Shown in pieces: positions 53,603-64,000 of a DNA stretch of 64,000 bases (the stretch's first letter is position 1; each line of letters starts with the position of its first letter). Both the position numbers and the translations under genes were made by a program. The stretch covers positions 736,001 through 800,000 of the forward strand of contig CBDHDF010000010.1 of the NCBI GenBank assembly GCA_965261545.1. Reading direction: 5' to 3'. The DNA comes from Bdellovibrionales bacterium. GTDB taxonomy: Bacteria > Bdellovibrionota > Bdellovibrionia > Bdellovibrionales > UBA1609. The notes under the pieces were generated by a model. The model was not told the origin of the DNA. It made no database searches and saw nothing but the letters and a program-made list of their open reading frames with translations.

Positions 53603-56600
53603 TTAACTTCGAGGATGCCCCCAACCTCCTCCTCCGGGGGTCTCGATAACGAAGATGTCGCCAACATCCATTTTGGTGCTATCGACACCCAGAAGGACCT
53701 CGATTTGCCCGTTGGTACGCTCGACACTGTTACGCCCGAGTGCACCACTACCGCCACCTTCAAGTCCGTAGGGCGGCACTCGCCGATGGCTGGAGATAAT
53801 CGCCACAGTCATTGGCTCTAGAAAACGAATACGACGGCGTACGCCATTGCCGCCTCGCCAGCGACCAGCACCACCACTGCCCTGCCGGATCTCAAAACTT
53901 TCTAGGCGCACCGGATAGCGCCACTCTAGAATTTCTGGATCGGTAAGACGGGTATTGGTCATATGGACATGCACAGCATCCGCCCCATCAAAACCATCAC
54001 CTGCGCCAGAGCCACCACAAATGGTCTCATAATACTGGTAGTTGGCATTGCCAAAAGTGAAATTATTGGCCGTGCCCTGGGATTCGGCCACAACATTGAG
54101 TGCACCAAACAACGCATCGACGATATATTGCGAGGTCTCGACATTACCAGCCACCACCGCCGCAGGAGCCTGCGGCCTCAAGATCGACCGCTCTCTGAGG
54201 CGAATATCTAGGGGTCGAAGCCCACCGGCGTTCAGTGGAATATCCACATCGCAGAGACAGCGAAAAACATAGAGAACAGCTGCCATGCAAACTGCCGTCG
54301 GCGCATTAAAATTGCCATCCACCTGGTCTGAAGAGTGCGAAAAATCCAGGATCACCCGTTGCGCAGCCTTATCTATGGTAATATCCACTGCAATTCGCCA
54401 ACCCTGGTCGGTCTCGATCTCAAAACGGCCCGAACGGAGGCCATCGAGCACCTGGCGCACACTCTCTTCAGCATTATCGCACACATGACGCATATAAGCT
54501 TGGACGGTCTCCAAGCCGAAATTCGCCACCATCCTGCACAATTCACCTACGCCCTTCTGGTTGGCCGCAATCTGGGCACGAAAATCAGCAAGATTCTCAA
54601 TCGGATTGCGAGCCGGATAGCGTGCGCCTTCAAGAAGCGCCAGCACCTCGTCCTCTAAAAAGCGCCCACCGCACACCACCTGGACATCATCGAACAAAAC
54701 ACCCCTTCTTCCTCAATATGGCGGCTGTCTGGTGGCATAGAACCGGGAGTGATACCGCCAATATCAGCATGATGGCCACGATTTGCAACATAGAACCAAA
54801 CCGCATTGCCATCGGGGGCAAAAACGGGCGTGATAAACGTAACATCTGGCAGATGTGTACCGCCATTATAGGGTGCATTCAGCATGAAAACATCGCCCGG
54901 TGCCATTGTCTCAGTGCGAGATCGAATCACCGACTGTACCGATTCGGACATCGACCCCAAATGGACGGGGATATGTGGAGCGTTGGCCACCAATTCGCCA
55001 TTGGAATCAAACACGGCACAAGAGAAGTCAAGCCTCTCCTTGATATTCACGGAGGAGGCCGTGGCAACAAGTGACGCCCCCATTTGTTCGGCTGTTGCCA
55101 TGAATAGGTTGTTAAAAACCTCCAGCAATACAGGATCTGCCTCGGTACGAGACGCCACCTGAGCTATAACCGGACGGACACGCTTCAACACGAGGTTGCC
55201 ACTCTCAAGCAAACGAGCTTCCCAGCCGGACTCAACCACCGTGGTCGCAGTGTCCTCAACAACAATCGCCGGCCCCATCACAGGACTTCCAGGCCTGAGA
55301 TTTCCACGAATACGTATAGGAACTTCATGCATCTGGCCTTCAGTGAACAACCGAACCTCTGTAGTCAAAACCGACTTTTCACCTCCACCCGCAATAACAG
55401 ACTCCACGGGCCAGTCTGCCCGCCCGATTAATTCCAGTGTGACCGCCTCGACCACAAGCCCCTTGGTCTTTGAAACAAAACCAAAACGCTGTCGGTGCTG
55501 GTTCTCGAAGGCCACTCGCACCTCCGCCTCTGGGCCAAAAGGCACCGTCAGTGGAGCATTGGTGCCGTCATAACGTACATGAAGTCGACGCTCCACTTCG
55601 ACCCGGTCCGGCGGCACACCTTGGGCTCCCATCTCTGACCAAGCCAGAGCCTCCAACTGCTCAAATGCCACTTCCACTTCCCCAATTTCAGCAAGCGGCA
55701 CTTCGACGGCCGTCTCACGCAATACCCTGATATCAGCAAGGCCCATACCGTAAGCGGAGAGCACACCCGCAAAGGGATGGATCAACACGGTTTCCATGCC
55801 AAGTACATCGGCAACAGCACAGGCATGCTGACCACCTGCGCCACCGAAACAATGGAGTACATAGCTCGTAACATCATATCCACGCTCAATGGAAATACGC
55901 TTGATGGCATGGGCCATGTTCTCAACAGCGATCCGCAGAAAACCCTCCGCCACGGCCTCTGCACTACGCCCATCACCAATGCGCCCGGCAAGAGAGATAA
56001 ATTTGCGGCGCACAATGTCGACATCCAGTGGCTTGTTACCCTCCGGACCGAAAATATGTGGAAAAAAACCAGGCAATAACCGGCCAAGCATGAGGTTGCA
56101 ATCCGTAACCGTCAGCGGACCGCCACGCCGGTAACAAGCAGCGCCAGGGTTGGCACCAGCACTCTCCGTCTCCGGGCCCACCCGGAAGCGTCGACCATCA
56201 TAGTGCAGAATGGAGCCACCACCAGCGGCAACAGTGTGAATGTCAAGCATTGGTGCACGCATCCGTAGGCCAGCGACCTCGGTTTCAATGGCTCGCTCAT
56301 AGCGACCAGCATAGTGGGAAACGTCCGTTGACGTGCCCCCCATGTCAAAGCCGATGATGCGATCAAAACCCGCCGACCGAGCGACCTCAACAGCCCCGAC
56401 AATACCACCTGCGGGCCCAGAAAAGATGGCGTCCTTACCCTGAAAATGATGGGCATCAACCAGACCGCCATTGGACTGCATGAATAACAATCGTGTCTCG
56501 CCGAGGGCGGCCACCATGCGTTCGACATGACGGCGAAGAATCGGTGAAAGATAAGCATCCACAACCGTGGTGTTACCACGGGAGACGAACTTCATCAGTG

Positions 56601-57053
56601 GCGAAACCTTGTAGCTCACCGACACCTGCTCGAAGCCCACATGTCGAGCTATCTTCTCAACCGCCACTTCATGTTCGTTATAGCGGTAACCGTGCATCAA
56701 ACAAATGGCGACAGCTCGAAAACCTTCCCTATGAGCACGAGCAAGGTCTGCCTCCAACTTTTCCTTGTCCAACGGCTTTACCACCTCACCCTGGGAACCC
56801 ATACGCTCATCCGCCTCAACAACAGCGTCGTAGAGTGCTTCTGGGAACCGTATATTCAAATCGAAAAGACGTGGACGATTCTGGTAGCCAATCTGAAGTT
56901 GATCGGCGAAGCCATGGGTCACCACCAACAGTGTAGACTCCCCCTTGCGTTCTAAAAGTGCATTGGTCGCAACGGTGGTGCCCATTCGCACCGCCTCGAT
57001 ATGCTCGGTCGGAATCGGATCATCCACTGCCACCCCCCCATAATACTGCGAAA
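53603..57053 (-). pseudogene. 5-oxoprolinase / hydantoinase A+B fusion, 5'-truncated and frameshifted
   Basis: MGTTVATNALLERKG, SGPAGG, DMGGTSTD, SVNIKERLDFSCA, YYETICGG, ETPGGGG. Frameshift near 54695 (EEGV/LFDD). The N-terminal DRGGTFTD segment is absent. Confidence 0.9.
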
Positions 57054-58989
57054 ACTCCCCGGACACAATAGACAACTTTTCCATTGAAATTTCCATAAAT
57101 ATATATAATCATTCACTTTATGCAATTGGTCGTAAATATGCTCGCTATCGTTGGCATCCACCTGAGGATTCTTCCCATTTAGCTTCGAACCATAGTCAAA
57201 GGAATGATAATGGCCCACCAAACAAAACATCAAAATCCATGGACAGCTCAGTTAAAAAGTGTCTATCAAAGCGACCAAGCCACACGGGTTCAACAGACAT
57301 ACGAAGTTGTTGTTCCAAAAATAAAGAAACAATTAAAGCAGAAAGTAAAACAACAGAAAATAATGGAGGTTAAAAATGGAAACATCAGTAGCTCTTTATT
57401 GTCGAGTGTCCTCAGATAAACAAGCTCAAGAGGGAACCATTGATTCACAGATTTCTAGTCTTCACGATTTCGCTAAGGAACACAGCTTTTGTGTAGAGGA
57501 GGATCTTATATTTACGGATAATGGTGTGAGTGGTGCCACCCTTGTTCGTCCTGCTTTAGACTCCCTTCGCGACAAAGCTTTTTCTGGGGAGGTTACAAAG
57601 GTACTTGTGTTATGTCCAGACAGATTAGCTCGTAAATATGCCCATCAATTGATTCTAATTGAAGAATTTCAGAGGCTAGGTGTTGAAATTATTTTTTCTA
57701 ATAGAGATATTACAAATTCACCCGAAGATCAGCTTTTGCTACAAATACAAGGAGTCATTTCAGAATATGAAAGAGAAAAAATTATGGAAAGAAGTCGAAG
57801 GGGTAAACTTCAAAAGGCTTCTAAGGGCTTTGTTAGCGTTTTATGTGGAGCTCCCTATGGTTATATATATATTCCGAAAGCAGACTCCGCTGACGCACGA
57901 TATGAGGTCCATCCAGAAGAGTCTAAAGTTGTTAAAGATGTTTTTCAAATGTATTGCCGAAACAAACTAAGTATTAGAGCAATTGCAAAGGAATTAAATA
58001 TAAGGGGGGTGCCTACTAAAAAACAACAAGGTATTTGGGAGCGTTCAACTGTTTGGTGTATGCTTAAAAACCCCGCTTATTATGGACAAGCTGCTTTTAG
58101 AAAGACTATCCAGGTAGAAAGGTTGCGTCCAACCAAGTTAGCAAGAGACAATAATTTTTATCCAAAAAATCCTAAATCAAGCTCTTCCGATCGAAATAAA
58201 AAGGATTGGATATATATTCCCGTTCCATCTATAATTTCTTCAAAAACTTTTCAAGATGCATCCAGTCAATTGGAAACTAACAAAAAACTTTCCCCTCGGA
58301 ATAATAAAAAATATGAGTATTTGTTAAGTGGTCTTTTACGATGCAAAGAGTGTGGTTATTCGATCTATGGCAAACCCGCTTCTAATTCAAGGTATAAGCG
58401 TTGTTATTATCGCTGTATGGGACAAGATGGTCATAGATGGCCAGCTAAAGGTAGAGTTTGCTCATCTCATCCCGTAAGAGTTGAAGTTTTAGATGACTTA
58501 GTTTGGGAACAAACAGTTAAATTACTTGAAAATCCTCAGGCAGTTATAGATGAGTATACAAATAGAATTCATGAGCAAAAAGGCCAACAACAATCATTGG
58601 AAAAATTAATTGCAAAAAAGGCTCAGGAGATTCGTCAAATAACACATGAAAAGGAACGTCTCTTGGATCTTTATCAAAATGGAACTCTAAATCTATCAGA
58701 AATAGAGTCACGATTAAAAAAAATAAGAGGCAAAATAAAGCAACTTGAAAATGAAAAGCAATCTTTAGAGTATGAGCAAAGGCAAGAAGGACAACAATTA
58801 CAGCTTGTAGATCAACTCCAAGAATTCCAAAAAAAAGTGAGTGCCAACTTAAAGGTATTGAGTTTTGAGCAAAAAAAGGAGATTGTAAGGCTACTGGTAA
58901 AGGAGGTTGAGCTGAACATTAAGACAAGTGAAATTGTGGTTCGACACGTTGTGCCAACATCCAAAAGTTTGCCATTGTGTCCGGGGAGT
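57054..58989 (+). mobile_element. Minimal large-serine-recombinase element (small ORF + LSR) bounded by 27-bp inverted repeats
   Basis: 57054-57080 ACTCCCCGGACACAATAGACAACTTTT and 58963-58989 AAAAGTTTGCCATTGTGTCCGGGGAGT match 24/27, with the outer 16 perfect. Unrelated genes are cut at each end. Confidence 0.82.
57210..57419 (+). CDS. Small basic protein overlapping the recombinase start
   Basis: AAGGA RBS before ATG 57204/57210. Overlaps the LSR by 44 nt and lies inside the IRs. Confidence 0.55.
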   Translation: MAHQTKHQNPWTAQLKSVYQSDQATRVQQTYEVVVPKIKKQLKQKVKQQKIMEVKNGNISSSLLSSVLR

Positions 58990-58998
58990 CACACATGA
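57376..58998 (+). CDS. Large serine recombinase (resolvase + recombinase + zinc ribbon + coiled coil)
   Basis: ALYCRVSS catalytic Ser, DNGVSGATLVRPAL, DRLAR, LKNPAYYG, LLSGLLRCKECG, YYRC. GGAGG RBS. Confidence 0.96.
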   Translation: METSVALYCRVSSDKQAQEGTIDSQISSLHDFAKEHSFCVEEDLIFTDNGVSGATLVRPALDSLRDKAFSGEVTKVLVLCPDRLARKYAHQLILIEEFQRLGVEIIFSNRDITNSPEDQLLLQIQGVISEYEREKIMERSRRGKLQKASKGFVSVLCGAPYGYIYIPKADSADARYEVHPEESKVVKDVFQMYCRNKLSIRAIAKELNIRGVPTKKQQGIWERSTVWCMLKNPAYYGQAAFRKTIQVERLRPTKLARDNNFYPKNPKSSSSDRNKKDWIYIPVPSIISSKTFQDASSQLETNKKLSPRNNKKYEYLLSGLLRCKECGYSIYGKPASNSRYKRCYYRCMGQDGHRWPAKGRVCSSHPVRVEVLDDLVWEQTVKLLENPQAVIDEYTNRIHEQKGQQQSLEKLIAKKAQEIRQITHEKERLLDLYQNGTLNLSEIESRLKKIRGKIKQLENEKQSLEYEQRQEGQQLQLVDQLQEFQKKVSANLKVLSFEQKKEIVRLLVKEVELNIKTSEIVVRHVVPTSKSLPLCPGSHT

Positions 58999-59323
58999 GC
59001 CTTGAGGTGTACCCTCATCGGTCATCCTGAGCTCCCCATCAGACAAAACTCCAGCCTTCAGCATTCTCACAATATACCTTATGAATCTTTCATCCGTGAT
59101 TTTCATCTTGAGTATGGACACTAATTTCTTATGGTCGATAGAACCAAAGTAATTTTCTAAATCCAAATCAATGATATAGCCCACTTTCCCATGATAGAGA
59201 TGCTGGTAGCACTGCCTGATGGCAGTGTGACAGCCTACTCCTCGACGGAATCCAAATGAACAGTCTTGGAAAATCGGTTCATAGATGGCTTCGAGAATTT
59301 TACTGAACATACGCTGGACCATC
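58990..59323 (-). pseudogene. Group II intron reverse transcriptase internal fragment
   Basis: MVQ...ILEAIYEPIFQDCSFGFRRG, DLDLENYFGSIDH, RMLKAG, EGTPQGSCV. Cut at both ends by mobile elements; no YADD. Confidence 0.92.
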
Positions 59324-59465
59324 TGTTATACGATACTTTATTCTGACTAGAATTCGCCTTTATTTTTTATTTTTCTTTGACCATCCCTAGAGAATTATTA
59401 CATTCCCTTGACTAAGTCTTGTCATAACCTCCCCATGAGTTTAATACTCTGCATCAGGAGGTGTT

Positions 59466-59915
59466 ATGATTTTAGCTACTTTTGTATCAACGGATGACCT
59501 TGTAAAAGAAGGTAAGAATTACAATTGGAAGAGGCCATGTAAGTGCCAAAATCCCGGCTGTAACAGTGAGAAGCTCTGGGGCCATGGCTATGTGAAGAGA
59601 TACTTTTTTGCATGCTCTGAAGCGGTCTACCTCAAGCGCTGGCGGTGTCCTCACTGCCACAGTGTTATAACGACAAGACCCAAGTCGTTCTGGCGTCGTT
59701 TTCAAGAGACAAAGTCTCGTATTTTCGAAGCATTACGACATCGTCTGAACCCCAAGATTCCCAAGGCATGGCCCCTTTGGACAACGAGGCAAAGAGCGGG
59801 GCACTGGCTGAAAAAACTTCTTAATCACGCTAAGGCTTATAATCTGATGAAAGAAAAAGATCCACTTAGCACAGTGGCCTTTTATCAAGAGAAAAACCTG
59901 GACATTTTTGGTTAA
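59466..59915 (+). CDS. Transposon accessory Cys-rich protein (DUF6431-like)
   Basis: CQNPGC...WGHGYVKR...RWRCPHC. AGGAGG RBS. Confidence 0.75.
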   Translation: MILATFVSTDDLVKEGKNYNWKRPCKCQNPGCNSEKLWGHGYVKRYFFACSEAVYLKRWRCPHCHSVITTRPKSFWRRFQETKSRIFEALRHRLNPKIPKAWPLWTTRQRAGHWLKKLLNHAKAYNLMKEKDPLSTVAFYQEKNLDIFG

Positions 59916-60050
59916 CGAAGTTTGCCAGTGCTCCCATTTATTTTCAACCTACCGTTTCTTGTCATTAACAAAGAGTCAGGAAGTTGTGTATCTCTTATTT
60001 CAAGAAAGATTTCCAATAACGGAAATTAAATCAAAGAAAGAGAGGTCAAA

Positions 60051-61349
60051 ATGGCTGATAAGGACAAGAAAATGGAGGTTGCCACCTTTAGATTCGGAGT
60101 GATTTCTGAATTTGTTACAGGGTTGCGCCTTGAATATGGAGAAAAAGAGAGATTGCTTACGGAAAAATCTTCCAAGAGCTATCGTGTTCCCTACTCATCA
60201 TCGACTCGTGTGAGTCGTTCCACCATAAAAAAATGGATTGCAGACTACAAGGGATCGGGCAATAGATTAGAGGGGCTTATGCCATCGGATCGCAAGGATC
60301 AAGGTCAATTTAGAAGTCTTGATGAATCTCTCCAAGTGGTCATTAAAGAGATCATGAAGGCAAAGGGACATTTTACAGGCATAGCCCTTGTCAATGCTCT
60401 ACGTCAGCGCGGCTCTATTGGTACCAATGAAGAGATCAATATGAGTGTGCTTTATAGATTTTTAAAGCATCACAAATTGCAACAAAAAGAGTCCACAGAT
60501 CGTAGGTCCTTTGAAGCTTCGTCTCCCAATGAAATGTGGCAGTCAGATGTTCTTCATGGCCCCATTGTGGTTGGCAAAAAGAGAAAGAAAGTAAAATCCT
60601 ACCTCATTGCCATATTGGATGACAATTCTCGCATCATTCCCCACGGGGAGTTTTATGAGTCCGAAAGGCTTGAGAATATGAAGGATTGTCTTAAGAAAGC
60701 TGTTGAGAAGAGGGGGCTTCCTCAAAAGCTTTATATCGATAATGGGGCTTGTTTTAAGGCTATAAACTTGGAACAGGTCACAGCTTCCTTGGGTATTCAG
60801 ATTATTCACACTCCTCCTTATACTCCTCAGGGTCGGGGGAAAGTGGAGCGTTGGTTTCGATATGTACGGGAAAACTTCTTTCCTCGCTGCGATGAAAAAA
60901 CCTTGAGCCTTGAAGAACTGAATGAGGTATTTTCTGACTGGGTGGAGAGTTATCACCACAAAGTTCATGGAACCACTGGCGAAACTCCATTGGCGAAATT
61001 CCGTAAAAATATGAAGTGTGTTCGTCCCGCTCCCCCCAATCTATTGGACTATTTTCGATTTATTCAATTTCGACGAGTTAAAAAGGATCGAACTTTTCAT
61101 TTGAATGGAACCATATATGAAGCTCCCGTAGACCTGATCGATAGAAGAGTGGAACTCAAGTTCCACAGAGAGACTCCCGAAGATGTTGAAATTTTCTTTG
61201 ATGGAAGAAGCTTTGGTCAGGCCAATTTATTGGATCGGCATGTGAATTTTTACTTGGGTCGCAATGGAAAGGTGACTTCTGCCACGAAAGAGACAAAACC
61301 AAAATCAGGAGAATTATTTTCAGGAGATAAAACAGGAGGGAAGAAATGA
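60051..61349 (+). CDS. DDE transposase (IS481/Mu-like, rve core with Mu C-terminal-like domain)
   Basis: FEASSPNEMWQSD, ILDDNSR, LYIDNG, PYTPQGRGKVERWF, YHHKVH. Confidence 0.93.
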   Translation: MADKDKKMEVATFRFGVISEFVTGLRLEYGEKERLLTEKSSKSYRVPYSSSTRVSRSTIKKWIADYKGSGNRLEGLMPSDRKDQGQFRSLDESLQVVIKEIMKAKGHFTGIALVNALRQRGSIGTNEEINMSVLYRFLKHHKLQQKESTDRRSFEASSPNEMWQSDVLHGPIVVGKKRKKVKSYLIAILDDNSRIIPHGEFYESERLENMKDCLKKAVEKRGLPQKLYIDNGACFKAINLEQVTASLGIQIIHTPPYTPQGRGKVERWFRYVRENFFPRCDEKTLSLEELNEVFSDWVESYHHKVHGTTGETPLAKFRKNMKCVRPAPPNLLDYFRFIQFRRVKKDRTFHLNGTIYEAPVDLIDRRVELKFHRETPEDVEIFFDGRSFGQANLLDRHVNFYLGRNGKVTSATKETKPKSGELFSGDKTGGKK

Positions 61350-62149
61350 AATACATTGAATATTTTGGAATGAAGTTCTCTCCTTTTAATGACAATCTTA
61401 AATCCAAAGACCTTATGTCTTTACCTGGAACAATGGCAGTGAAAGAGAGATTGGATTATGTTCTTTCCATTGGTGGAATTATGGTCGTCACCGGCGATGT
61501 TGGCACCGGAAAATCCACCGCCATGAGATGGAGTTTAGATCAATTCCACAAATCTGAAATTAACAGCTGTTATGTGACGGCGAACAGTGGCTCAACCAGT
61601 GAGCTATATAGACAATTGTGTTGGAGTATAAATTTAAATTTAAGAGGAAACCATAGGTCCTTCCTTCTTAAGGAATTCAAAGAAGCCATCTCAGAAATAT
61701 TAGAACAACAAAGAAATAAAATTGTGGTTATCATTGATGAGGCATCCTTATTGAGAGTCGATGTCTTTGCTGAATTGCATACGATTAACCAATTCAACTT
61801 TGATTCTGAAAAAAGATTCTCACTTATTTTGGTGGGACAGAATAACCTTCTTGATAAATTGAAGTATAGAACTTCTCTGCCCTTGGCTTCTCGTGTGATG
61901 ACCCACGCTCACCTACCAGCTCTTAATGAAGAAAATATGAGAAATTATCTAGATCATCACCTTAAAATCTCTGGAATCAAGAATAAACTCATGACAGATA
62001 ATGCTGTCACAGCCATTTGGCAGGGCTCTGGAGGCTTGCTAAGAAAAGCCAATTTGATTGCCAGAGGTTCATTGATTGCATGTATGAAAGCTTCTGAAGA
62101 ACAAATTACAGAAGAACATGTTCGCCAAGCCGCCACAGAACTTATTTAA
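61346..62149 (+). CDS. ExeA-family AAA ATPase (transposition helper)
   Basis: Walker A GDVGTGKS, Walker B VIIDEA, LILVGQ. ATGA-coupled to the transposase. Confidence 0.9.
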   Translation: MKYIEYFGMKFSPFNDNLKSKDLMSLPGTMAVKERLDYVLSIGGIMVVTGDVGTGKSTAMRWSLDQFHKSEINSCYVTANSGSTSELYRQLCWSINLNLRGNHRSFLLKEFKEAISEILEQQRNKIVVIIDEASLLRVDVFAELHTINQFNFDSEKRFSLILVGQNNLLDKLKYRTSLPLASRVMTHAHLPALNEENMRNYLDHHLKISGIKNKLMTDNAVTAIWQGSGGLLRKANLIARGSLIACMKASEEQITEEHVRQAATELI

Positions 62150-62610: not shown

Positions 62611-63393
62611 CTAATGAACTTCTTTGGTTGAACTTTCCTCTTTGCTCTGTTTAGACTTGGCTTTTGCCGATTCGGTTCTCCAACTTTCTTTTCCTTCAAT
62701 GTTGAGGGTTTCACAGTTGTGAATGATTCGATCAACAGCAGCAGCGGTGGTAATAGGGTTAAGAAACACCTTATCCCATTCAGAGTATGTTAAGTTTGTA
62801 GTGATCATGAGACTTTTCCTTTCATATCGCTGAGATATGAATTGAAAGAAAAGATCTGCCCCCTCTGTGCAGGAAGCTGTATAGCCAAGTTCATCACAAG
62901 CAATAAGATCAAAACGGTCTAATTTCTTAAAAAGAGCATTCAATGAGAGTTCTTTCTTGCTTTCACGCATTGTTTCAATAAGTTCATGAGTGGTGACCCA
63001 TAAACATCGATAGCCTTGTTCACAGAGTGAACGAACTAGGGACATGGCCAAATGACTTTTCCCCATTCCAAAGCTTCCGTAAAACACAACATTACAGGCT
63101 TTTCTGACCCACTCTCCCTCTGCCATCCAATTAATTTGCTGAGCTGTCACTCCCGTTCTTTTCTGGAAGTTATAAGTTTGGAGTGATTTAAGTTGAGGAA
63201 GCTTGGCCCCCTTAAGCAATCTTTTCACTCTCTGGGAATGCTTGTCAGCAAGCTCATTTTGAACGAGTATACCTAAATACTGTTCATACGTCTTTTTTGT
63301 TTTTTCGGCAACTCTAGCCGTTGCAACATATTCATCCGCCATCGCTGGAAGTCGGAGTTTTTTAAGAGAACCTATAAGTTCTTCGTGATTCAT
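62611..63393 (-). CDS. istB: IS21 helper ATPase IstB
   Basis: LKKLRLP, GSFGMGKSHLA, LIACDELGY, SQRYERKSLMITTN, AAVDRIIH. Confidence 0.95.
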   Translation of the reverse strand: MNHEELIGSLKKLRLPAMADEYVATARVAEKTKKTYEQYLGILVQNELADKHSQRVKRLLKGAKLPQLKSLQTYNFQKRTGVTAQQINWMAEGEWVRKACNVVFYGSFGMGKSHLAMSLVRSLCEQGYRCLWVTTHELIETMRESKKELSLNALFKKLDRFDLIACDELGYTASCTEGADLFFQFISQRYERKSLMITTNLTYSEWDKVFLNPITTAAAVDRIIHNCETLNIEGKESWRTESAKAKSKQSKEESSTKEVH

Positions 63394-64000
63394 TAAGAAC
63401 CTCCTATGTTTGGAACAAGACTGTCATATTGAGACAATCTAGGTTGAAGTGGTTTTTGTTGGTCATTCAAATTAATTTTGGTGGGATTTCCTAAGAGCAA
63501 ATCTTTTATGGATTTAAAGTCGAAAATCTCACGACTTTCTAATTGAAGCTCCATGGCTGTAGATAAGTCCTGCCAACTCACATGCTGAATCAAGTTGATA
63601 ACTCTTAAATATTCATGCTCGGCACGGCTTGAATCTTGTTGCTTGAGGTATTGATAAAAATTTTCAAACACATTTGTTGGAAAAAGAATGGATCGGTGAG
63701 CCCATCTTACCATGGCTTGCGGCTTACGAACTAAAGAAGGAAGGATATGTTCAAGAAGAAGACTATGCTCCCCATCAGGTTTTCTTTGATGGCGAGCGAC
63801 AATTTCTTGCTTCCCTCCTGCACGATAGATCGTGACATGATAGGGACCCTGTACGGTTTTACAGGGAGATTGGATCACCTCATCAGGTATGGAATATGTG
63901 GTTTTACCTATTCTCAAAGTCCCATAACCATTACTTTGACAAATATTCACCTTACAGAGAATATCTTCATCTCGTGGAGGCAAAGGCTTAAGAACTTTGG
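63393..64000 (-). CDS. istA: IS21 transposase IstA, C-terminal part
   Basis: Frame open to the window edge. LKPLP, TYSIP, IVARH, HILPSLVRKPQA, LSQYDSL. Coupled to istB. Confidence 0.85.
   Translation of the reverse strand, partial: KVLKPLPPRDEDILCKVNICQSNGYGTLRIGKTTYSIPDEVIQSPCKTVQGPYHVTIYRAGGKQEIVARHQRKPDGEHSLLLEHILPSLVRKPQAMVRWAHRSILFPTNVFENFYQYLKQQDSSRAEHEYLRVINLIQHVSWQDLSTAMELQLESREIFDFKSIKDLLLGNPTKINLNDQQKPLQPRLSQYDSLVPNIGGS

Follow-up and report, generated by a model that had tools for sequence, protein, structure and literature searches.

The window, i.e., the whole 64,000-nucleotide stretch of DNA that was analyzed, contains a short segment between two incomplete genes, which is bounded by 27-bp inverted arms (57054–57080 and 58963–58989). 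The arms are complementary at 24 of 27 positions (89%), the outer 16 being perfect, and only two ORFs lie within the enclosed 1,936 bp, whereas mobilization, conjugation, and cargo genes are absent; repeats and ORFs thereby reproduce what had been described in the original prediction. The first ORF (57204–57419, forward strand) encodes a small basic protein of 71 amino acids and overlaps the start of the second one, a gene for a large serine recombinase (LSR; 57376–58989, forward strand) with 538 element-encoded codons and no internal stop. The recombinase frame crosses the right arm, where it reads LPLCPGS, continues for two flank codons and ends with a stop at 58996–58998, which gives an ORF of 540 amino acids (57376–58998) that, as predicted, takes its stop codon from DNA outside the element. 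The left end consists of a 1-base spacer and the arm (57053–57080), the same geometry being present in relatives, and the right end of the arm and a 1-base spacer (58963–58990), as read from empty sites. Each arm represents an attP half-site. The 2-bp crossover core at the left junction (attL) is AA (57051–57052), its register following from the empty sites of four other targets, and the core at the right junction (attR) is AC (58991–58992), which is also found in three empty sites of the same target. To the left lies the 3′ part of a GC-rich 5-oxoprolinase/hydantoinase gene (53603–57050, reverse strand), the 5′ part of which flanks the right end of another copy on contig C7. The genome holds no empty oxoprolinase allele, and the AA core is presumed to be host-derived from the reading frame across the flanks of the window and C7 copies. 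To the right lies the 5′ part of a group II intron reverse transcriptase (RT) gene (58993–59324, reverse strand; TIGR04416, profile positions 77–184), which is severed directly after GTPQGSC and cut off further upstream by another IS. The GC content falls from ∼0.54 at the left to 0.36–0.40 inside the element, and a promoter scan was uninformative, with two sites against 1.1 ± 1.2 expected. Two further IS adjoin the element in the window, one with genes for an IS481-like integrase-core protein, an AAA ATPase, and a 149-amino acid protein without assigned family (59324–62149), and the other an IS21 pair (62611–64000).

The recombinase comprises Resolvase, Recombinase, and zinc-ribbon domains, and DUF4368 is not among these three Pfam families. 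The catalytic S12 and the arginines of the DRxxR motif are invariant across a 34-row alignment, and the predicted structure resembles solved serine integrases, whereby the best Foldseek matches show 14–19% identity. The protein thus combines the serine nucleophile, the DRxxR motif, and the recombinase and zinc-ribbon/coiled-coil domains of an LSR, and it shares domain order and fold with the integrases of SPbeta, phiC31, Bxb1, and LI/A118. The best NCBIfam scores are far below the curated cut-offs of the SCCmec Ccr and XisF families (CcrB, 150 vs. 900 bits; XisF, 110 vs. 375 bits; CcrC, 108 vs. 900 bits), and the IS607-type model NF033518 scored 42 bits against a cut-off of 110. IS607 elements possess a short serine transposase with an N-terminal HTH and lack terminal inverted repeats (PMC6188088, accessible portion), in contrast to the 538-amino acid LSR and the 27-bp repeats found here, and unlike DDE insertion sequences the window element has neither a DDE transposase nor a target-site duplication. 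The small ORF is conserved in relatives with the family pattern W..Y..DR..R..AY.L.LP. Searches assigned it to no Pfam or NCBIfam family and gave no Atlas match at ≥0.9; its product is a candidate directionality factor.

BLAST searches and an end-motif scan of the genome identified 11 copies or fragments, which together possess 10 left ends and 10 right ends. Seven of them are uninterrupted and 1,936 bp long, two are split by other IS, and the remaining two are fragments, one with only the left and one with only the right end. The other copies match the window for exactly 1,936 bases, which is why the repeats cannot be due to chance. Two subtypes can be distinguished, subtype A with 99.5–100% identity to the window copy and subtype B with 97% identity and 28 amino acid differences. 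The copies occupy six target sites, and for five of these empty alleles are present. Three of the targets (RT-1, RT-2, and RT-3) are RT genes of different group II introns, in each of which the cut falls at PQGxx|xSP, and a fourth intron (RT-B) is cut at another place within its gene; the remaining two are the oxoprolinase gene and a terminal repeat that belongs to another multi-copy element (IS end). None of the four intron families detected in the genome is without an insertion. The four empty intron loci all adjoin Rfam group II matches, and the intact RT-1 copy on C7 adjoins an Rfam group II D1–D4 match. The comparison of empty and filled alleles gave the junction order host, 2-bp core, 1 base, arm, followed after the interior by arm, 1 base, 2-bp core, host. 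Hence, a single base beyond each arm and a single copy of the core belong to the element as well. The length of 1,936 bp that had been proposed holds as the length shared among copies, whereas the net insert amounts to 1,940 bp. The arms indeed behave as halves of an attP site, with 4 nt between them in the deduced junction. The proposed lack of a target-site duplication was borne out at the empty sites, where four targets revealed no duplication beyond the 2-bp core, which is present on both sides; it cannot be read from the window itself, since left and right flanks derive from different target genes. Together with the copies and empty alleles, which bear out the suggestion of an autonomous IS-sized LSR element, these data leave us practically certain that a mobile, cargo-free element is moved by a single large serine recombinase.

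The core bases differ between left and right at two of the three subtype-A sites for which both ends are available. At RT-2, the empty allele carries the core AC, whereas the left junction carries GC, the core of the RT-3 site, and this GC is one of only two differences over a 742-bp flank. The agreement with RT-3 suggests that the element takes core bases along when it moves between sites. Subtype B was found in a triple nesting at C10:1013277, C10:179004, C11:549502, and C6:252655, where it sits in an intron RT gene that itself lies within apparent IS21 end repeats. The five simple subtype-B copies may be independent insertions or may have been spread by the host intron or the IS21 carrier. 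One intron SNP occurs with both alleles in filled (4:1) and empty (1:3) copies. An intron loaded with the element might still be capable of retrohoming, provided that RT is available in trans. None of 300 other genomes of the host's phylum yielded a relative at E 1e-60.

The window copy separates the 3′ part of the oxoprolinase gene (left) from the 5′ part of RT-1 (right), and the complementary gene parts flank the C7 copy in a reciprocal arrangement, RT-1 contributing its 3′ portion to the left side and the oxoprolinase gene its 5′ portion to the right side. From these flanks we infer that the window copy is a hybrid, which probably resulted from a rearrangement between the RT-1 and oxoprolinase sites. 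Homologous recombination between two copies, attP × attB recombination of a chromosomal tandem dimer, and misassembly would all three give the same product. In the last case, the assembler would have swapped the flanks of the window and C7 copies at the 1.9-kb repeat without any rearrangement. The two copies share 99.9% identity across 1,659 bp, none of the contigs from four runs spans the whole element, and at least three metagenome loci (L022, L025, and L036) likewise have unmatched flanks, all of which would fit such a swap. However, megabase contigs of the same assembly cross much longer repeats, the C7 copy can be told apart by two additional IS insertions, and for a second hybrid copy, on contig C2, none of the 10 left ends provides the reciprocal counterpart. 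These counter-arguments bear on the window join only indirectly, and a swap by the assembler appears unlikely but keeps some weight. The oxoprolinase-element junction is present in contigs of two studies, one of which reaches 186 bases into the element. For the C2 copy, a tyrosine recombinase gene was considered as the target on the right and rejected, as 17 bases of another element's terminal repeat intervene. The oxoprolinase gene has two frameshifts (54696 and 57033); at one or the other position, 2 bases are missing from one contig each in runs X2 and X3, whereas run X1 agrees with the window, and the frameshifts may be homopolymer errors or alleles. A single contig of the second study (run X5, depth 2) ends at window position 57240 in 23 loose bases, which we take to resemble a cDNA template-switch adapter. 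If run X5 is RNA, a transcript might join the left end of the element to the truncated oxoprolinase gene, although one depth-2 contig is too little to establish this. Just past the 5′ part of the oxoprolinase gene on C7 there is a gene in which a 42-bp repeat occurs about ten times (C7:145940–146370; L154).

When the two ends are joined in silico, the recombinase frame passes through attP into the left end of the element. In this circle form the gene of the window copy would comprise 645 codons and cover 1,938 of the 1,940 bp, with 106 codons past the junction codon up to a TAA (57053–57373, forward strand). The first ∼34–35 of these codons, which do not include an ATG, form the conserved circle-only segment, and in the integrated state the left-end frame has neither a start codon nor a ribosome site of its own. 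Loci of relatives were retrieved by recombinase similarity only, whereby 46 were taken as the close clade, 42 of them with a scorable end; not all loci are independent, since the recombinases of L019, L020, and L022 and those of L001 and L035 are near-identical. The circle frame is open for 39–101 codons in 24 of 25 two-ended loci. For a codon test we used 29 distinct left ends, leaving out L041, L042, and L070 as uncertain or distant, and considered codons 10–36, which lie outside the repeat and ahead of the small ORF. In this range 64% of the single changes are synonymous, compared to 9–37% in the five other frames (the pair counts being non-independent), stops occur in 1 of the 29 left ends compared to 15–25 in the other frames, and the pairwise identity at the three codon positions is 0.59, 0.68, and 0.42, the third being the most variable. 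By these measures, the left-end codons display a pattern of protein-coding selection. Thus, the proposed difference between the C-termini of circle and integrated forms is corroborated, the circle form adding a conserved extension under apparent coding selection, and there is a high probability that this extension is translated from the circle. A sister clade possesses its own open circle frame of 104–114 codons in 12 of 12 loci, and in three other distant loci the frame is merely 28–34 codons long.

The circle junction was found neither among the joints listed for the four runs, which consist of contigs and thus drop rare forms, nor with degenerate patterns in 151 loci or IMG/VR. The circle-form protein was absent among 27 matches at the level of 90% clusters, 39 among 50% representatives, and 16 candidates longer than 472 amino acids, a weak negative because protein clustering would hide this form. 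Of the database matches, the 21 sequences that were inspected are host frames that run into the left end. At attL of sense insertions, IS630 and IS3 transposases and a replication protein continue in frame into the extension, so that fusion ORFs are present in the databases (P0128, P0135, and P0142).

In order to model where the extension lies on the enzyme, its first 38 residues were folded as a second chain with recombinase residues 155–538. The docking score was 0.61, compared to 0.11 for the best control; the docking mark is reached by 116 of 157 solved pairs and 2 of 215 mismatched pairs. The runs agree in at least 62% of the contacts, with a partner pLDDT of at least 52. In the model, extension residues 8–20 pair with the strand 518–526 and touch the helix 367–394, so that the extension is predicted to supply the zinc domain with an additional beta strand where this domain meets the coiled coil. 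The docking could also be explained if amphipathic strands generally tend to attach to the free edge of a sheet. All verified RDFs have been predicted at the DBD2-CC junction, where most of them add a strand, and the possibility that extra C-terminal strands of SCCmec LSRs block the RDF site has been raised and left open (PMC12286644, 2025, accessible text). The C-terminus of the SPbeta integrase has been placed in the same switch (bioRxiv 10.1101/2025.01.03.631226, accessible text). With the extension modeled at the known RDF site, the enzyme made from the circle would be plugged and that made from the integrated gene would be free to take up an RDF.

In the mechanism that we propose, recombination of attL with attR would excise a 1,940-bp circle, the junction of which (arm, 1 base, 2-bp core, 1 base, arm) would constitute attP, and attP × attB recombination across the 2-bp core would integrate the circle again. 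Given the position of attP within the recombinase coding sequence, the last residues encoded by the integrated gene are random and come from the host, and the gene in the circle gains the segment of ∼35 residues. The protein made from the circle, its RDF site blocked by the extension, would then integrate, and the protein made in the integrated state, its RDF site free, would excise together with the small ORF product. From the docking, it may be that the extension acts as such a directionality switch, though the chance falls slightly short of even. Chromosomal tandem dimers would carry attP as well and would make the plugged enzyme and drive inversions or deletions of the kind seen in the hybrid flanks. 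Both non-RT targets of the genome occur only in hybrid copies, which would fit this route, though with n = 2.

A different explanation is that the recombinase is bidirectional like TnpX and TndX, and that the extension stabilizes or activates the protein, full activity then arising only from the circle, or serves as an inhibitor or directionality factor fused to the enzyme. Enzymes of the TnpX/TndX type need no RDF for either integration or excision (PMC5704250, accessible portion), many att pairs are substrates of those SCCmec LSRs that carry extra C-terminal strands (PMC12286644, accessible text), the best NCBIfam matches are CcrB, XisF, and CcrC, if all far under cut-off, and docking does not reveal whether the extension blocks or activates. 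However, the second small gene that is conserved across the clade would presumably be dispensable for a purely bidirectional enzyme, and the modeled site of the extension is the known RDF site. Taken together, we regard a bidirectional enzyme as rather improbable.

A protein search yielded 3,788 relatives among 7,999 scored proteins, with variable lengths, as the protein tails are translated host DNA. Among the 120 relatives listed, 87 align to the element end and 73 of these have a tail of at least eight residues, which allows the target to be read from the protein. The RT motif fits 46 of these 73 tails, 21 by the antisense reading of TPQGxx and 25 by the shifted sense reading of xSPxxxNx, and 27 tails are off-motif; patterns moved by 1–10 residues match once in 634 tail-offsets. 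At the DNA level, 38 of 63 scorable ends lie at the RT motif codon in both orientations (close clade, 24 of 42 loci) and 25 lie elsewhere. Matches to an RT profile built from the genome's own RTs break at positions ∼167–177 on both strands. The preferred attB is a pseudo-palindromic sequence that encodes PQGxx|[I/V/L/A]SP of group II intron RTs, whereby the crossover core corresponds to the first two bases of the codon preceding SP and the orientation follows the core: sense insertions have CT or GT, antisense insertions AG or AC, and AT is shared by the two. Left and right cores are equal in 18 of 25 two-ended loci and different in seven; serine recombinases cannot religate fully mismatched centers (bioRxiv 10.1101/2025.01.03.631226, accessible text). 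In LSR elements the zinc-domain motif is expected to lie ∼5 bp nearer the center in attB than in attP. Here, comparison of the SP half with the left arm showed a weak peak at the expected shift of +5 (0.39), with −2 nearly equal (0.37), and there was no clear peak in the other three of the four comparisons. A plasmid of a Bradyrhizobium elkanii isolate carries a longer variant with the same right junction and annotated RT fragments on both sides. In the genome itself, the family matrix scores the three motif sites at 25.7–44.3 and the oxoprolinase, RT-B, and IS-end sites at −14.9, −20.2, and −11.8, respectively. The GTVQG motif of the RT-B intron itself (score 20.6) is occupied in none of its copies.

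In a quick tree of 78 rows the window protein falls into a 38-row clade (SH-aLRT 99) with RT as the commonest target label. The sister clade inserts at RWxV|ER of an element that we take to be IS5. Other relatives are found in IS3, IS6, IS66, IS630, a replication gene, and a short palindrome, labels that are presumed from motifs except where a target is named by Pfam or its source. In one subclade (L032, L033, L037, L039, L043, and L044), the element sits in the center of short GC-rich palindromes with the core AT and not in RT genes, and a distant, partly planctomycete clade (L003, L005, L073, and L082) sits in palindromic repeats that are presumably REP-like. We conclude from the tails and loci that the family very likely has a strong preference for one codon of group II intron RT genes. 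This runs against the relaxed target choice originally predicted, which describes only a minority of the ends and tails. That the element is IS-like with relaxed specificity, RT genes being frequent only because insertions into mobile DNA are tolerated, would accommodate the oxoprolinase, IS-end, and second RT sites of the genome and the IS3, IS6, IS66, IS630, replication-protein, and palindrome sites of relatives, but tolerance cannot yield one codon across many divergent RT genes in both orientations or a single match in 634 offset controls, so that this reading is already largely refuted and highly improbable. We consider it probable that the explanation as a whole applies, i.e., an LSR transposon with an RT codon as attB, a gene completed in the circle, a state-dependent switch, and a hybrid copy in the window.

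Tn4451 has a GA core and a promoter that is made in the circle. Tn4451/Tn4453 (TnpX) and Tn5397 (TndX) likewise depend on one LSR and a 2-bp crossover, have no true target duplication and more than one target, and move through a circular intermediate such as that proposed here; they carry cargo and mobilization genes and work without an RDF (PMC5704250, accessible portion), whereas the window element comprises 1.94 kb without cargo. Unlike them, it possesses a conserved small gene, a preference for an RT codon, and an attP inside the recombinase gene. Phage-type integrases also use a symmetric attP around a central dinucleotide, with orientation given by the core, and their RDF is a separate protein, no state-dependent C-terminal strand being mentioned in the accessible texts (PMC12286644; bioRxiv 10.1101/2025.01.03.631226). 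In contrast to phage integrases, the window element is free of phage genes, is multi-copy, and has an integrase gene that is whole only in the circle. The element would work like Tn4451/Tn5397 or a phage integrase, yet its gene content agrees with neither. In SSV1-type archaeal tyrosine integrases and the repressor of mycobacteriophage BPs, attP likewise lies inside a gene and integration changes the protein. These cases concern another enzyme class or gene; here, 538 residues with all three Pfam domains stay intact and only the modeled regulatory strand is exchanged. In the multi-targeting clade of Durrant et al. (Cp36 and kin) close LSRs spread across several target gene clusters, and 63% of the clade carry DUF4368 (PMC10083194, accessible text), which is absent from the window recombinase with its strong preference for one motif. 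Term searches of the accessible text and eight supplements of PMC10083194 returned no RT or intron targets, and in the supplements the peptide motifs of the family gave only one match, an unrelated Firmicutes row. Term searches of the accessible parts of PMC12884075, PMC11376236, and PMC9203015 revealed no such LSR element, and the accessible open literature contained no RT-targeting or circle-completed LSR element. The elements could constitute an undescribed, widespread class of two-gene LSR transposons that parasitize the most conserved codons of mobile elements with a direction set by the DNA state, a tentative suggestion with the balance lying somewhat against it.

The locus combines an active expansion to multiple copies, for which empty sites are available, with the results of the codon test and with a circle-only strand that is modeled at the RDF site. 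It also presents a DNA element that preys on group II introns at one codon. Directionality of serine integrases is a live question, and the family provides one enzyme in two natural versions, with the C-terminal strand or lacking it, together with readable attP and attB and a candidate RDF, which makes the question testable in a simple plasmid assay. For engineering, where the original prediction saw a candidate integrase, there is a warning that cloning of the annotated (integrated) gene yields a random tail and misses the conserved extension. The genome further encodes a second, distant LSR (24% identity) in ∼8 copies, probably another mobile LSR element (C3:8099–9685, C6:280760–282346, C7:538764–537178, C10:13647–15233, and C10:1007869–1006283, with further copies at C11:177120, 193246, and 879047), and two more LSR genes are located at C11:892901 and C2:59123.
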